64,000 bases of DNA, taken from assembly GCA_028534125.1 (NCBI GenBank), contig CM052816.1:24864001-24928000 (forward strand), written 5' to 3'. Source of the stretch: Lama glama. Its lineage: Eukaryota. The notes under the pieces are model-generated. The model worked only from the letters and a program-made list of their open reading frames with translations, was not told the DNA's origin and did no database searches. Numbering within the stretch: position 1 is the first letter of the stretch; each line of letters starts with the position of its first letter. Positions 30,267-64,000 of the stretch are shown here, piece by piece. Made by a program: the position numbers and the translations under genes.

Positions 30267-30817
30267 TTTTTTAATTAAAATATAATCAGTTTACAATATT
30301 ATGTCAGTTTCTGGTGTACAGTATAATGTTTCAGTCATACAAACACATATATATATTCATTTTCATACTTCTTTTCATTACAGGCTATAAGATATTGAGT
30401 ATAGTTCCCTGTGCCATACAGAAGAAATTTGTTGTTTATCTATTTTATATACAGTAGTTAGTATCTACAAATCTCAAACTCCTAATTTATCCCTTCCAAC
30501 CCCCTTTCCCCCTGGTAACCATAAGTTTACTATGTCTATATATTTGTTTCTGTTTCGTAAATAAGTTCTTTTGTGTCATATTTTAGATTCCACATATGAG
30601 TGATATCATATGGTATTTTTCTTTCTCTTTCTGGCTTACTCCACTTAGAATGATGATCTCCAGGTCCATCCATGTTGCTGCAAATGGCATTATTTTATTC
30701 TTTTTGTGGCTGAGTAGTATTTCATTGTATAAATTTACCATAGCTTCTTTACCTAGTCATCTGTCAATGGACATTTAGGTTGTTTCCATGTCTTGGCTAT
30801 TGTAAATAATGCTGCTA
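30267..30817 (-). mobile_element. Young 5'-truncated L1 (cetartiodactyl/camelid-type), ORF2 end plus 3'UTR
   Basis: T-tail at 30264-30272 and L1 text 'caggtccatccatgttgctgcaaatggcattatttt'. Probable 13-bp TSD ccaacacagcttt (30254-30266) / ccaaaatagcttt (30818-30830). Confidence 0.92.
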
Positions 30818-31765
30818 CCAAAATAGCTTTAAATCTGTTTCTGAAGGATGATCAAATTTTGAAATATAGTGCCTCTACTACCTTTCTGCTCTAGGACTTT
30901 CACTTTGATTTTCCTTGTTGAATCAAAGGGTTATTGAGAATACTTTGTTTTAGACATTAGTATTTTAGCTATCTCTCTATCATTGATTTATAACTTTATT
31001 ACTTTATAGATAAAGGCTGTATAATATTGATTCTTAGGAATTTATTGAGACTGTGGCCTTCTACAAGGTTACATTTTCAATATTTTCTAATTTTGCCTGA
31101 AGCAAAGGCATAGTCTCTGTTGATGTAAAGTTTATTACTTAGAGCTTATTTTTTTTAATTTGTAAGAAATTATTTGCTTTTTTTGCTCTGTTTGATTTAT
31201 TGGCAATTATTAGTTAATAATCTACAACTAGAATTGTTGATTTATCCATTTTCCCTTATAGTTCTGTGAGCTTCATTCTTGGGGGAAGAAAAGACCAGTG
31301 GACTGGTACTACAATTCTTTGAACTGATTTTTTTTTTTTTGCCTTAGAATAGGTAAATGAGTATTTTATAGTTTGAGGGTCTAGAACCCAACTCTATGAG
31401 TCATTCAGTGCTGCTATATACGTTACACTCAGCTGTTAAAAGAAGCAACCAAGAGAGAAATATTAGATCTTTTACACAGCAGGAAGAGAGAGCAGCTAAG
31501 GCCAATGATAAAATAATTCTCAATACATAAGAAAGGAGAGGAACAAACAAATAATGCTGTGGGGTTTGGGGGAGGTAGGGAATGGAAACTCACTTGGATA
31601 TAATGCCTTAAAGTAAGACATTTCTGAGTGGTAGAAGCTGGCTGTTGGTTGTTTCCTGAAAGTGTCAGCAGAGATCAGAGAAAGGAGAATAAAGACACAA
31701 CTCTGAGGGGAAGTGCTTCATTGGCATAGTGCAAGAGAATGAATTATCACATCAAGAATGACCAC

Positions 31766-32505
31766 TGGAGAAAAAGGAAACTTCCTACACACTTGATGGG
31801 AATGTAAATTGGTGCAGCCACTATGAAGGACAATATGGAGGGTCCTTAAAAAACTAAAAATAGACTTACTGTATAATCCAGCAATCCCACTCCTGGGCAT
31901 TCATCCATAGAAAGCTATAATTCAAAAAGACACCTGCACCCCAATGTTCATAGAAGCACTATTTACAATAGCCAAGACATGGAAACAACCTAAATGTCCA
32001 TCAACAGATGACTGGATAAAGAAGATGTGGTATACATACAATGGAATATTACTCAGCCATGAAAAAGAATGAAATAATGCCATTTGCAGCAACTTGGATT
32101 GACCTAGAGATTATCATATTAAGTGAAATAAATCAGACAGAGAAAGACAAATATCATATAATGTCACTTATATATGGAATCTAAACAAATATATAAAAAT
32201 TTTACTTAAATACCAGAAATAGACTCACAGGCATAGAAAACAAACTGGTTACCAGGGGGTTAGTGCAGGGGAGGAATAGATTAGGAGTTTGGGATTAATA
32301 GATACACATTACTATATATAAACAACAAGGACCTACTGTATAGCACAGGGGATTATATTCAATTTCCTGTAATAAGCTGCAGTAGAAAAGATATATATGT
32401 ATAAATATGTATGTATATATATAACTGAATTGATTTGCTGTACATATGAAACTAACATCGACTACACTTCAACAAAAAGTAAGAATTAAATTAAAAAAAA
32501 AAAAA
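31766..32505 (+). mobile_element. Young 5'-truncated L1 with poly(A) tail
   Basis: ORF2 C-terminal text 'tgggaatgtaaattggtgcagccactatg...ccagcaatcccactcctgggcat...ggaaacaacctaaatgtccatcaacagatg'. A-tail at 32493-32507. TSD aagaatgaccac (31754-31765) / aagaatggccac (32506-32517). Confidence 0.95.
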
Positions 32506-33864: not shown

Positions 33865-36800
33865 TAGAGGGGTGGTAAGTAAAGGTATGGTCCATTCTAC
33901 AATATATCTTTCTTATTCTTTTCAGAGATTGGTTAGGCGCAGTGTAAGATAGCAACACAATAGCAATTTTATAGCACTGTTTAAGCTTTTACATTTACAT
34001 ACTGCCTGAAGGACCTCACACCAGAGCCAAACAAGTAAGTTGCTTTCAATTAAGGATATTGGCTCAGTGCTTGGTGTTTACACACAATTATTTATGTATG
34101 AGTTGGGGGTTCCTACTTTCAAAATGGGTATTAGAAATAAGCTGCTTGATTTTACATCAGATTTAGCCCTCTAAACTTCACGCCTAATAAAAATACCGTG
34201 CCTATTATATGACAGCATTGTAGATGATTTTTTTAGTTAATTTTCTATTACTCATAATGTATGGATATTCCTAATGATTTCATTAGAGTTTAAATAACAG
34301 AATTCAGCACAAATGTATTTTTACTGAGCAGAAGAAACATAATTTCTCTGAAACTGCAGCTGCTGTAGTTGAAGATGAGGCTCTTACTATCCCTTAGGGA
34401 GATTACTGTCTCTGCCAGCTGACTTAGTTTTTATACAGCCAGCGATTTATTAGATTGCTTTGCTCTTAAGTGTGATAATAGGCCTTATGCTTAGCAAGGT
34501 TTAGAGACTTCCAGTGCATTAATATTTTATGGCAATGACAGGCAAGACACATTTTGTTTACCTAACAAGACAAGCCAAGCCAGAGCTGATGTGTATTGGA
34601 GATTAGCACTTTCAACTCAGAGGAACCCTGTCAATTATATATTTAGGGCTTTGCAATGGCTCTTAACAATTGTAATCTAATCAGTCCCTTACTTGGTACA
34701 TTGTTATTATGTGCAAAGAAATCATCACAGCTTTATAGTCTGGCCTTAACAGGAAATAACCTCACTTAACTGACTAATGTTAACCATGTAATGACAATGA
34801 ATTTTCTGGTGACTTCTTTTCTTCCGATAACAGATTTTATTTCACTTGGAAATCACTCAGCCATGAGCCAAAGCTTCAGTAGATGCACATATATCCAATT
34901 TTATTCGGATGGTCCACTCAATTGATTTGAATCACTTACTAAGGAGAGAGATTATGGTACCCTTGATTTCTGAAATTTTATTGTCATTATTGCCTTCTTA
35001 TTTTACAAGCTATTTAAAATAAAGTAATTTCTGGTCCTCCTGTGGAGCAGAAGTACAAATAAAACATCACAAGATGAAACTGACTGGGCGAGTTACTACA
35101 GTACCATTTTTATTTTGTCTTTCTTCTTTATAAAGCAGAGTTCACAGTTGCATCATTTTCCTTACTGGGAAAAAATCATAAGTCTCAATGAACAGTAAAT
35201 GTTGGAATATTGATTCTCTCTATTTTCAAATTCTCTTAGTATACCTAGCTCATCTGTATGTTTTGAACATAAAATTATATATGCAACATTTCTTCAGTGT
35301 TCTTAAGGGACTGGGACTGTTCCAATCAAATTATTAGGTGCTTTTTATTTGTAATATTAAGCTTCATTTTATATACATGTGAGGTTTATATATAAAGAAA
35401 TTAAAGTTTTATTTATTAATTAATAAACCTTCAGTTTAGATCCAAGATATTATAACTATAATTTAAATATACAGTGGAATTTGAAATTTCTCAATTTGTG
35501 GACATCACATTAAGAGTGTAACCCGAGGCATCAACAGCTCTGAGAAGACAGGGACACTTAGAAAGGGACTGGAAAGCTTCTATCAAATTAGTTAGCCCAT
35601 ACTTTGGGGGAAAGAGAGGGAGGGGAGGGACAGACATAGGTTTGGAGTATGGGGATTGGACAGTTGAAAGGGAAAGAAGCCTGAATATGTGAAAAGTGAG
35701 TCAGTATGCGTTCAAAATTGGAAAATATGAAGTACATGTAGATTTAGAAGAATCGCTAATACCTACTGGGTTCCAATGAGTCATAAACACAGACCACATC
35801 GTGCCCTACAGGGTTCCTATGTGTGTTCATTACTCTTAATGCAGTTCTGTGCAAGCCCCAGAGGAACAAAGCCAACTCCCAAATCTTGGGGTTAGTGTAA
35901 TCATTCTGAGGCTGGCACTCTGCCCATGCTTGACTAAGTCTGCTGATGTTTCTGACAGAGGAGAAAAAAAAGGAAAACATTTGGTTTGAGTTTACAGATT
36001 GCTTTCTTTTTAAAAATTGGGGGAGGGTGGAGTGGTTGAGGTGGGTGGAAATGAATGTTGTCACTGGGCTAAAGTTTTGAAAATTACAAATACACAATAA
36101 AATGAAATTAATCCTTCGTGCAAATCATCCGGAGTTTTGCCGTTTTTTGGGGATGGAGACTTGATGTGAAACCATTGACAATGCCATAGAACCCTCAGTC
36201 ACTAGGGTGTTAAAGCTGAGACTTCTCTTTCAGAGCCTTTCTTCTTTCCTGCAATTGCCCAGAGAGTGTTTATTTGAATGCTAGTTAATTAAATTTTAGT
36301 AAGGACCAAGGCAATCAGATTTATCTCAGTCTCTTCATCTTCTGTTCCTAATTTAGCTTTTAAGGAGTGCTTTCTGATTGCAAACCCCATGAAAGAAAAA
36401 TCAGAGGGCTATGAGGGGAAGGCATAGAGATTATGTTAAGCTTCATCAACCAGGAAATAAAGTGAAAGTAAATTTTCAATGTGCTGGAAGGGAGTAGAGA
36501 CACATAAGCATACACTTTGTATTCGAGCATGATCGTTTAACTTAGTTCTCTACTTTGTTGAGGTATTCAAGTCATTTTTTCCTCTGCCTCCCTCCCCTTC
36601 CCAGAGCAACACGGTTCTCAAACTTGAGAGTAGCTCAAAATACAACACTGTTGGGAAAATGCTGATTCTGGCTTTCTTCAGGGAATTTAGAGGCCCAGTG
36701 ACTTGGAGCAAATCACATGGCTGGTGATTGGCTTTGTCTCTGTTTTTATAAGTGATTAAAAAGAAAACCACTTCAGTAATCCTCAGACCTCTGCTCTCTT

Positions 36801-37590: not shown

Positions 37591-37828
37591 AAATGACTAT
37601 ATTATCTTTTAAACAGGAAATTTGTTTTGTGATTTTCTTATTCCTATATTATTAAGCTTTTTGGAAAAGACTCAGTAAAGGATGGTAGTCATGGTATGTA
37701 GTGATTTATAGTCATTTTCTCTAACTCCTTTTTCATCTTACAGGGAGATGATTAAAATTACTGAGTTCTCTTTTTTTATAAAATGGTATTGGGAGAATAT
37801 TTCTTTTAGGATATTGTAGTGTGTTTTT

Positions 37829-38451
37829 TTAATACATGAATATACATATATTCATTTTCATTCTTTTCACCATAGGTTGCTATGAGATATCAAATATAGT
37901 TTCTTGTGCTATACAGTGTGAACTTGCTGTTTATCTATTTTATATATATTAGTTAGTATCTGCAAACCTCGAACTCCCAGTTTATTGCTTCCCATCCCTT
38001 TCCCCCACATGGTAAGTGTAAATTTGTTTTCTATGTCTATGAGTCTGTTTCTGTTTTTATATATAAGTTCATTTGTCTTTTTTTTTTTTTTTAAGATTCC
38101 ACATATAAGTGATATCACATGGTATTCTTCTTTCTCCTTCTGGCTAACTTCACTTAGAATGACATTCTCCAGGTCCATCCATGTTGCTACAAATGGCATT
38201 ATTTTATTATATTTTATGACTTAGTAGTATTTCATTGTATGAATATACCACAACTTCTTTATCCAGTCATCTGTCAATGGATATTTAGGTTGTTTCCATG
38301 TCATGGTTGTTGTAAATAGTGCTGCTGTGAACACTGGGGTGCATGCATCTTTTTGAATTAAAGTTCCCTCTGGATAAATGCCCAGGAGTGGGATTGCTGG
38401 ATCATATGCTAGGTCTATTTTTAATCTTCTGAGGAATCTTCATACTGTGTA
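37829..38451 (-). mobile_element. Young 5'-truncated L1 (same family as 30267 and 31766)
   Basis: ORF track 37909-38199(-) MPFVATWMDLENVILSEVSQKEKE is the L1 3' region. Perfect 14-bp TSD tgtagtgtgttttt at 37815-37828 and 38452-38465. Confidence 0.95.
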
Positions 38452-60984: not shown

Positions 60985-61990
60985 CCTTTCTGTGGTACCC
61001 AGGGAGGGTTCCAAATGGCATTCTCCTGGATTTCGTTCATAATTTAAAGGGTTCCCAATGTCCAGAGCCCATGATGTCCTGCAGAAGAAGGAGGTGGATG
61101 TCCTCACATTCCTTGCAGCAGGAACCCACGTGGGTGGCACCAATCTTGACTTCCAAATGGAGCTGTTCACTTACAAAAGGAAAAGCAATGGCATGTACAC
61201 CATAAAGCTTCTGAAGACCTGGGGGAAGCTTTTGCTTCTGGCTTGTGCCATTGTTGCTGTTGAAAACCTGGCTACTGTCTCATGTCATACCTTCCAGGGA
61301 TACAGCCAGCAAGCTGTGCTAAAGTTTGTTGCTACCACTGGAGCCGCTCCTATTGCTGGCTGCTCTGGTCCTGGAACCTTCACTAACCAGATCCAGGCAG
61401 CCTTCCTGGAGCCACTACCAGCTCTGGTGGTTACTGATCCCAGGGCTGACCCCAGCCCCTCACAGGGGTGTTTCATGTTAATCTGTGTACTATCACTCTG
61501 AGTAACGTACTGGTGAGACTCCCTTCTGTACCGTGGGAAGATTGCCGTTTCCCACACGGCAGCAAGGGAGCTGTCTCGGCCGTCTGACGTGGGGGTGGGC
61601 CTGCGAAGTACTGCGCCTGCGCGCTGGTTCCCGTGAGCACTCGCGCGAGGTCACAGTGGCTCTCCTTCCACAGTGTGAGGAACGGAAGACATCTCTCCTG
61701 AAGAGACGAAAAAGGATGAGCAGGCCATTCCTGAAAAGGTGTGGGTCCGAAGGAACTTCAGGATGTATGAACTGCTCCAGCTCCTGAACTGACGGCTCTT
61801 CATGCGAGCTCGCGGCGGGGTCTGCCGGCGCAGCTGCACTCGGGCCTAATTATCGGTTCGCCGCTGAAGACCGGAGCCAAGCCGGGCGCCGAGGCCTGCA
61901 CTGTGAGCTCCAGCCGCCGAATCCGTAAGAACGACTGCTGAGTGGCCGCAAGCTGCTCTTCCTTAGGCGCTTAAACAGAAAATGAAACAG
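60985..61990 (+). pseudogene. RPSA: Processed pseudogene of 40S ribosomal protein SA (uS2 / 37-kDa laminin receptor precursor)
   Basis: ORF 61058-61501 [35 protein letters not shown]...[12 protein letters not shown]...VVTDPRAD matches RPSA ([35 protein letters not shown]...). It is intronless and includes a 5'UTR starting at pyrimidine 'cctttc'. There is a frameshift after DPRAD, further indels, and remnant EVLRLR. The stop position has become CAA (61949-61951), followed by 3'UTR-like 'gctgctctt..taggcgcttaa'. Confidence 0.96.
61505..61970. promoter_or_regulatory. CpG-island-like segment within the RPSA pseudogene (function unproven)
   Basis: Hand count of ~39 CpG in ~470 bp, the only CpG-dense patch in the window. 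NRF1-like tgcgcctgcgcg at 61612-61623 and ETS-like acggaag at 61682-61688. Confidence 0.5.
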
Positions 61991-62015
61991 AGGATTAGGA
62001 ATCATGTGACGAGTC

Positions 62016-62426
62016 CAGAGGTCATGAACTAGCAGGGTAGAGGATGGAACAGGCCTGCAGGTGTTTTATTGGTTTGTTTGTTGATTTATTTTAATGTGTT
62101 TAAAAGTTAATGCAGCAATTTTAAAATCAGGAGATTTTCAGGCGAAGGTTTGGATTTCAGCTTTTTGATGCTTCAGCTAGCAGTGGTCCTGCATTCCCAC
62201 GTGGTCATCACAGTTGGGGACCCGCTGCCTTCAGGTGGGCTGGGGCTCTCCACGTTTCCACAGCTGCCCATCCTCCGTTGCCTCTTCCACTGGGCCTGTG
62301 TCAGCTGCTGTTCATCATGCTGCTTGCACTTTAGTTTTCTCCGACCCCCAAACTTTTCTTACTCAGCTGATTTCTGTATTAATGTCACCTGTCCAGCCCT
62401 TATAGACATTTATGTTTATGACCCTA
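62016..62426 (+). mobile_element. MER102-like hAT-Charlie element
   Basis: 'cagaggtc..aactagc..ggcctgcaggtgtttt..tttaaaatcaggagattt..gcattcccacgtgg..gtcacctgtccagccc.tagacatttatgtttatgaccc' follows the recalled MER102 consensus. Confidence 0.75.
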
Positions 62427-64000
62427 ACTCCTCTTAGTATCCCCGTTTTTGAAATTGGAGGGATGAGTTAGGAGATGTATTTTCCAAATCTTAACAACCT
62501 GGATACTATTTTCTACTAATATTTGTATAAGACATTAGGGGAAAATGGATTAATTAGAATAAGGAGAGATTTAGGGTAGTCACGAGAAAGAACTGCTAGA
62601 AGAAAATGTGAAAGAAACGTTTTTTTTTCCTGTTAGAGATTTTGAACTCTTGATTCTTAATTAAAGAAGGATAATTGCTTATATCTGTGCAATGCTATAG
62701 TACTTTTGAAAGTGCTGTCTTATAAAAGAACTTGTATGAGCCCATTTTATGAGGCTGTTGTTTTAGAAAGGACATGGATGATGGGTGATAGTCCCATCTA
62801 GGATGAACTCCATTGTGGGTGTGTGTCTCGGGGGGTAAATTAAGGACTTTATCATGGTTTCTTTTGGCTGTATAATTCCATTTTTCATAAAGACTGTGAT
62901 CTTTCCTAGAAGAGTAGTAAATACACTGCAAAGGACTGAAGCTATTAGAACATGTTGGCTGCTTACAAAGATGGTTTAGGTTCCCCCTTTTATACTGATT
63001 TATGAGGCAGGTGGTATTAGCAATCATCCAGCTTATTACAACTATTTTCATTTCAGTATTGTAAATCTGAAGCACACCAAGATGTTTTCAAATAGCTGGC
63101 GAGACTTGGGAAATTTCTGTCAATTCAGGTTTCAGATAAGCACCTGTGGTGTGTGTAGAAGTCATTTGGCAGATTTCCCTTTTCTCCATTTCTACCTTAG
63201 TTTGGATTTGCAGGGAGAACAATGTTGGGATGAGTATCCAAACGTGTAAGGATAGCGTGGTGCCTGAAAAAGACCTCTGGCCACACATTTCAGTAGCCTG
63301 GGTCCAGGGCTTGCCATTTACCCTTTGTGTGACCTTGACTCATCTATAAAAGAGGGGGATTACTACAGCAAAGCCTGGCTTCCTCTGTGAGCCCGACACA
63401 CGGACCCCTGAATGGCACATTGAATGGCTTCTATTCTCCTTCCCACAGCCGTGGTAACTGCTCACTCTCAAAACTGTTCAAGACAACTAGTGTGTTAAAG
63501 CTTCCCTGAAGGAGAAGTATTTGCTCACAATTGGTAAAAAGTTGTTTAGAGTCAACAGTCAATGATATTTGAGCTTCCAGGAAGTTGCTTGGAAGACAGC
63601 AGTGGCAGGTACAGCTAGACTAAAGAATAATCTGGAGCACAGCAATGAGATAGTGTATTTTTGGCTACCTTTTCCCTTTACCTCTTCCCCTCTGGTAATG
63701 CTCGTGTCTCTAATAGTCCAAAGTCCTTTGATCACCCATGTCTCACAACTATGTCCTCTTGAGCAAGTGCTTCTTCTCCAGATCCTAACCCACTTGCTTT
63801 TTCCACCAAAATTTGGGTGTTGCAGTTTTGTGAAGCCCTAGTCCCTAAACAGATATAGTAGTTTACAAGTATGTGTTAAGGCAAACAGTGACTTACTATC
63901 TTGCCCCTCTGTTCCATTTGCATTCTAATCAGGGATATTCACAATCACAATACACAAACACATTATTGTCACTAAAGATAGAATTATAGATACCAAATGG

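Follow-up and report, generated by a model that had tools for sequence, protein, structure and literature searches.

A CpG island in the 3′ half of a dead RPSA retrocopy, probably built by GC-biased gene conversion on unmethylated DNA

Processed pseudogenes of ribosomal protein genes made by L1 are intronless, cover the full coding span and carry frameshifts. The RPSA retrocopy described here, found in a 64-kb stretch of DNA (hereafter the window, meaning the whole stretch that was analysed), is likewise intronless and frameshifted, and its 5′ half shows the CpG decay of such copies; its 3′ half has moved in the opposite direction. Two described processes come close to what is seen at this locus. 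In dog, unmethylated intergenic sites give rise to new CpG islands through GC-biased gene conversion (gBGC; Berglund et al., PMC4350167), and PRDM9-independent ('default') hotspots occur in many placental mammals (Joseph et al., PMC11161765). The locus resembles the dog islands in that a surge of A/T to G/C (W→S) substitutions combines with CpG retention to give an island that appears to lie away from genes; the dog case, however, is genome-wide and belongs to a PRDM9-null lineage (PMC4350167), whereas here a single locus is concerned, in a retrocopy whose ancestral state is known and in what is likely a camelid. It resembles the PRDM9-independent hotspots in the high equilibrium GC of a CpG-island-like site (0.67–0.77 for the island here), but the sites in that study are orthologues of mouse Prdm9-knockout hotspots (PMC11161765) and ours lies in a lineage-specific insertion. 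Camel and alpaca are not mentioned in the main text of that study, although its species list may include camelids. Rapid CpG gain in previously unconstrained DNA, with gBGC as a source, also likens the locus to the turnover of orphan CpG islands (PMC11170920) and to the 'CpG Beacons' of HAQERs (PMC12687773). Those systems come with chromatin data, and for HAQERs there is evidence of selection on CpGs (PMC12687773); the island described here, known from its sequence, has no excess of CpG-creating changes.

Retrocopies are themselves an established setting for islands. In human, 665 retrocopy-associated CpG islands have been described (PMC4122923), PPP1R26P1/CpG85 in RB1 is an imprinted retrocopy island (PMC3839921), and orphan islands and NRF1 motifs have been linked to retrocopy promoters (PMC4772013). 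As with PPP1R26P1/CpG85, the retrocopy is dead and the island occupies sequence derived from its coding part; the cases named in these sources, however, inherited and kept a parental island, whereas here most of the CpGs are new and the corresponding segment of our comparator is CpG-poor (PMC3839921, PMC4122923). A literature search, in which subscription papers were thinly covered, returned nothing on this locus, nor on any RPSA copy turned island; the RPSA match that it gave was RPSAP52 (PMC6726650).

The underlying process is already published, and the locus is a clean example that illustrates it rather than revealing a new one. Its distinctive points are that the island consists mostly of CpGs newly gained by a CpG-poor coding sequence, that it surrounds an NRF1-type motif and that it comes with an internal control. 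It bears on the question of how islands originate, that is, whether lack of methylation or CpG density comes first. A retrocopy offers a known starting sequence and its own control, one half having decayed while the other became an island, and this one shows that CpG-poor coding DNA can become an island, chiefly by gaining CpGs, in the absence of selection favouring them. The NRF1-type site is a candidate, testable seed and, if that reading were true, RPSA copies would form a series with which to test whether a transcription-factor site precedes the birth of an island.

Structure and authenticity of the retrocopy

A sequence-only reading had proposed that this is one RPSA retrocopy, decayed normally in its 5′ half and turned into a CpG island in its 3′ half. 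The retrocopy itself is borne out by phmmer, tblastn, a codon alignment and a DNA-level match, which together give an intronless, frameshifted copy of the whole coding span (Table 1). The frame that starts at 61058 matched uS2/RPSA among solved structures (phmmer, E 1.5e-49), and tblastn with the RPSA protein P0010 gave 69% over 61058–61459, in the 5′ half. Similarity of the 3′ half to RPSA is weak at the protein level (31%, E 0.066, tblastn); at the DNA level it matches a vertebrate RPSA contig, L003, at 67.6% over 383 columns with a score of 157, as against a maximum of 43 in 300 shuffles. In a frameshift-aware alignment to P0010-compatible codons the 3′ half continues the 5′ half colinearly and with no intron as far as ~61952, and the halves meet in register at codon 148 with neither duplication nor loss at the join. 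The copy carries 18 indels, 16 of them frameshifting, so the reading frame is disabled. Ahead of the ATG, the sequence at ~60985–61057 resembles what we take to be the RPSA 5′ UTR, and the retrocopy may therefore be full length. No target-site duplication stood above chance (the best upstream/downstream match scored 10, equalled by 265 of 300 random stretches), no AATAAA was found and no poly(A) remnant could be established; at the divergence of this copy, decay of such features is to be expected. The words that had been quoted as examples of the changes are present as described (TCCAGA at 61061, GGCAGC at 61558, GACCGGA at 61869 and GCCGCAAG at 61945).

Table 1. Features of the retrocopy and its 3′ flank (positions in the window)
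Feature	Position	Strand	Remarks
Processed (intronless) RPSA/uS2 pseudogene	61058..61952	+	Full coding span, ATG to stop remnant
5′ half, codons 1–148	61058..61503	+	2 CpG and 4 indels; divergence ~15% at protein-fixed sites; serves as internal control
CpG island: 3′ coding half and start of 3′ flank	61505..61970	.	39 CpG; divergence ~28% at protein-fixed sites; 14 indels, of which 9 are deletions and 5 insertions
NRF1-type 10-mer GCGCCTGCGC	61613..61622	+	Putative; sole site in 64 kb
~19-nt insertion relative to RPSA	61676..61694 (approximate)	+	Local template searched, none found
GC-rich (0.61), CpG-poor patch outside the retrocopy	62180..62329	.	May be a shoulder of the GC bias

The hand counts of CpG on which the earlier claim was built proved exact, with 2 in 61058–61500 (GC 0.515, CpG o/e 0.07) and 39 in 61505–61970 (GC 0.614, o/e 0.89). 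Across the whole 64-kb window GC is 0.365 and CpG o/e is 0.16, and the CpG maximum among the other 127 500-bp bins is 8. Taking an island to be a segment with GC and CpG o/e above the usual thresholds over 200–500 bp, 61505–62004 qualifies on sequence (GC 0.592, o/e 0.89), and 61424–62088 is the sole Gardiner-Garden-type island in the window. The CpG change point falls at 61505 (2-log-likelihood range 61479–61531). Of the sharp boundary that had been placed inside one insertion, the sharp CpG step is thus upheld, while for a single insertion it is the colinearity of the halves that argues. Outside the retrocopy, the GC of the patch at 62180–62329 exceeds that of every 150-bp window in 1–60000 (maximum 0.587).

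The sequence was also sought in sequencing runs, using 106 words sampled from 61480–62480. Of the 24 runs listed, 14, which are ~2-Gb data sets under five organism labels, contained at least 0.93 of the words. Three of the 14 may be the source, and the other 11 come from five studies. That 11 further runs from five studies contain the words indicates that the sequence is genuine and occurs in close relatives too, and is not an error of assembly.

As a stand-in comparator, and not as the parent gene, we used L003, a vertebrate-type contig that was the sole near-identical RPSA at the protein level among 80 loci in metagenome contigs; no mammalian RPSA DNA was found in viral contigs. Within its positions 1–1516 it has an intronless stretch of RPSA coding sequence that matches residues 62–295 of P0010 at 97%. 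Its flanks do not look vertebrate, the downstream one resembling by eye a MORN-type repeat frame; the contig could be chimeric, or the gene captured from a host. There are 10 CpGs in its 445-nt 3′ half and 11 in the 251 nt of its 5′ part, and the window has a CpG at 3 of the 10 and at none of the 11. Of the 38 CpGs in the 3′ coding half of the retrocopy, 16 are incompatible with any RPSA-encoding sequence and 5 fall at indels; among those that the protein allows, L003 shares 3 and lacks 14. Given the 16 protein-incompatible CpGs and the mere 10 CpGs of the L003 segment, the island is mostly new, and it is unlikely that the parental RPSA 3′ coding sequence was equally CpG-rich.

Direction and rate of substitution

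Substitutions were given a direction only where the near-invariant RPSA protein dictates the state of a codon position, and the counts below refer to these non-degenerate sites. At protein-fixed sites, W→S changes occurred at 14/133 positions in the 5′ half versus 37/115 in the 3′ half (P=3e-5), a contrast that held across all eight alignment settings (P 1e-6 to 5e-4), while changes from G/C to A/T (S→W) were unchanged (14/128 versus 16/151). The same contrast was obtained when 22 codons variable among 99 of 120 homologues were dropped (13/125 versus 32/106, P=2e-4) and when CpG sites were masked (13/132 versus 26/104, P=0.002), and a change point for W→S lies at ~61555 (61460–61558, permutation P=0.0008). 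The W→S excess claimed for the 3′ half therefore survives polarisation against the RPSA protein, and at these sites W→S exceeds S→W outside CpG as well, which is the pattern by which a gBGC tract is recognised. The W→S:S→W ratio compared directly between the halves did not differ significantly (P 0.08–0.22), and the test within the 3′ half is weaker under CpG masks (P=0.07 with one mask, 0.012 with the strict mask).

An assembly or alignment artefact, or the inheritance of the CpGs from the parent, has to be weighed here, given that similarity to the comparator is only 68% in the 3′ half and that 14 gaps are needed to align it. When neutral simulations were realigned with the same 14 indels, however, the observed W→S excess was reached in 0/110 and 0/110 cases (0/220 null realignments), and the word counts in the 11 further data sets and the 16 protein-incompatible CpGs also stand against such a reading. 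We regard it as largely refuted and barely credible.

The 5′ half proved to be less neutral than had been supposed. Thirteen of its 14 S→W changes fall at sites that were possibly parental CpGs and, with CpG-prone sites masked, it shows W→S at 13/132 positions versus S→W at 1/38. Likelihood fits, which assume a mutational GC of 0.33–0.40, gave B of 1.1–1.8 for the 3′ half, with zero GC bias rejected in all nine mask/background settings (P 1e-3 to 5e-13, rate free). For the 5′ half they gave 0.4–0.7 unmasked and 1.2–1.6 masked, the masked value being indistinguishable from that of the 3′ half (P 0.8–0.9). Since the masked bias is equal in the two halves, the whole copy likely felt a GC bias, and the halves differ in CpG retention and in a ~3x rate. 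The description of the 5′ half as normally decayed thus holds only for the loss of its CpGs, there being a lean to G/C once CpG-prone sites are masked; likewise, the broader reading keeps its W→S excess and its fit to unmethylated DNA under GC bias, but not the 5′ half as a plain neutral control.

The substitution rate of the 3′ half is 2.3–3.2x that of the 5′ half (P 4e-5 to 9e-4), which gBGC alone does not explain, and indels number 14 versus 4 (P=0.03). W↔W changes are alike in the 5′ and 3′ halves (7/133 and 6/115), and S↔S changes differ (3/128 versus 15/151, P=0.013) in a manner that fits a higher overall rate. A special C↔G signature of break repair was considered and dropped, the S↔S frequency of 0.105 being near the 0.084 expected from a plain 3x rate. 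GC at four-fold sites climbs only from 0.47 in the 5′ half to 0.51 in the 3′ half, as against 0.45 and 0.47 for the same halves in L003. CpG-creating changes account for 11 of the 37 W→S changes, versus 11.3 expected from context; selection for such changes was accordingly not seen, and the bias takes no notice of CpG, which is how gBGC on unmethylated DNA should behave.

If CpG is masked, no model fits better than one with equal bias and a ~3x branch length, as would be expected if the halves differed in age. Ectopic conversion, with the parent or a further copy as donor, might later have replaced the 5′ half of an old, GC-driven copy, or the copy might consist of two abutting insertions, and the boundary would then be a conversion edge, with which its sharpness and the lack of a target-site duplication above chance agree. 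An unmethylated, GC-biased 3′ half would still be required, however; the in-register join at codon 148, where nothing is duplicated or lost, speaks against it, and a hotspot whose rate falls off at its edge would explain the same fit. We consider a difference in age to be quite unlikely.

A model for the origin of the island

Forward simulations were run 40 times per cell from three starts, namely L003 itself and versions of it with 20 or 28 CpGs, using rates fitted to the data; the CpG count was not fitted. None of the methylated models and none of the models without GC bias reached 38 CpGs (0/40 runs). Methylated DNA with B of 1.5 gave ~16 CpGs with a maximum of 30 (0/40 at 38 in all three cells), and in unmethylated neutral runs GC fell to 0.49–0.56 and CpG reached 32 at most (0/40 in all six cells). 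Unmethylated DNA with B of 1.5 attained the observed count in 0/40, 0/40 and 4/40 runs at the 5′ rate; at 3x this rate mean CpG was 32, 36 and 42, at least 38 were present in 2/40, 14/40 and 33/40 runs, and the resulting rates were near those observed. Within this set of models, the absence of methylation, a GC bias and a ~3x rate are together the only combination that fits the island.

These results bear on two further explanations. Repeated PRDM9-directed hotspots, or regionally high recombination, acting on normally methylated DNA would yield both the W→S excess and the G/C lean seen in the 5′ half. The simulations of methylated DNA under GC bias nevertheless fall well below 38 CpGs, the rest of the window is CpG-poor at a GC of 0.365, and PRDM9 hotspots are short-lived; we think this explanation very unlikely. 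Alternatively, the 3′ half could be an unmethylated start site transcribed in the germline, with raised mutation and no gBGC. A rate of 2.3–3.2x would suit such a site, and starts active in testis, lncRNA starts among them, are hypermutable whatever the type of mutation (PMC13712754). Such a site might contribute to the rate, yet it does not account for the direction: GC falls in the unmethylated neutral simulations, which stay at or below 32 CpGs, and zero bias is rejected, which leaves this reading with very little credit.

The explanation that we favour, and hold to be probable, is that a long-lived recombination hotspot, unmethylated in the germline, turned the 3′ half of the dead RPSA retrocopy into an island by gBGC. 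We infer both the hotspot and the germline hypomethylation, the latter from the survival of CpGs. After insertion, ~450 bp would have escaped germline methylation, possibly seeded by a putative NRF1-type site spelled by the RPSA codons L-R-M-R. The unmethylated, promoter-like patch may then have attracted meiotic breaks independently of PRDM9; gBGC would have raised its GC, and each new CpG would have survived because it was unmethylated, so that a denser island would reinforce its own unmethylated state. Break repair, a germline transcription start or both could have raised the mutation and indel rates, and conversion tracts extending into the methylated 5′ half would have left a weaker G/C lean there while CpGs were still lost. 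Meiotic breaks are known to raise substitution and indel rates (PMC7615360). Counting against the fit to a hotspot, 9 of the 14 indels in the island half are deletions, whereas indels at human autosomal hotspots lean to insertions (PMC7615360). Human start sites show no present-day excess of gBGC (B 0.33; PMC13712754).

The NRF1-type site, hints of transcription and the genomic setting

The 10-mer GCGCCTGCGC is what we take to be an exact NRF1-type site. It overlies the parental codons L-R-M-R, where L003 has a version with one mismatch, and two of the three CpGs common to L003 fall inside it. Of 5000 shuffles that kept the island's dinucleotides, 34 contained it, and it was one of nine motifs tried. 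The island also contains a CRE/E-box-like word (a CRE-like word occurred in 258 of 5000 shuffles); consensus motifs for ETS, YY1, NF-Y and CTCF gave no convincing site in it, and the BANP motif was found only with two mismatches. Splice-donor-like words, as consensus matches only, lie at the island edges at 61463 (-), 61513 (+) and 61925 (+), and could serve a first exon in either direction. Two RNA-seq runs from one study, with a reproductive system label, hold 0.28 of the words of 61480–62480, which is only a hint of transcription. Runs X17–X20 are small (word shares 0.10–0.16) and were counted as no evidence.

The NRF1-type motif, the CRE/E-box-like word, the donor-like words on both strands and the RNA word share would all suit a 3′ half that had been co-opted as a promoter, an enhancer or an imprinted differentially methylated region, as PPP1R26P1 was in RB1, with selection fixing and keeping its CpGs and G/C, and there are precedents for promoter or imprint function in retrocopy islands (PMC3839921, PMC4122923). 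This half evolves faster, however, not slower, and with more indels; CpG creation is no commoner among its W→S changes than context predicts, and their excess persists outside CpG contexts. Moreover, the NRF1-type motif was one of nine tried and is partly inherited, and the RNA word share does not discriminate between parts of the segment, between strands or between RNA and carried-over DNA. We judge co-option to be unlikely, while noting that it and gBGC can both hold.

A more specific form of the hotspot explanation, offered tentatively and with doubt on our part, would run as follows. A putative NRF1 site in the RPSA codons L-R-M-R, retrocopied into AT-rich DNA, might have kept a patch unmethylated in the germline and drawn PRDM9-independent breaks for tens of millions of years, and gBGC might have built a CpG-island promoter that now fires in reproductive tissue.

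Four reading frames in the island matched no Pfam family, and there were no Rfam matches in the window. A search for a host gene gave no Pfam match above the cut-off among the 150 longest of 684 stop-free frames, in a scan that also missed the RPSA frame and in a window that ends 2 kb downstream. As no coding exon was seen in the scanned frames, the window may be a gene desert or a long intron. A repeat-free stretch at ~34250–34950 looks by eye like conserved non-coding DNA and has no coding exon in the scanned frames. Elsewhere in the window, three related L1 3′-end fragments (~30270–30830, 31790–32500 and 37820–38450) are 76–88% alike and have tails that we take to be of the cetartiodactyl type.
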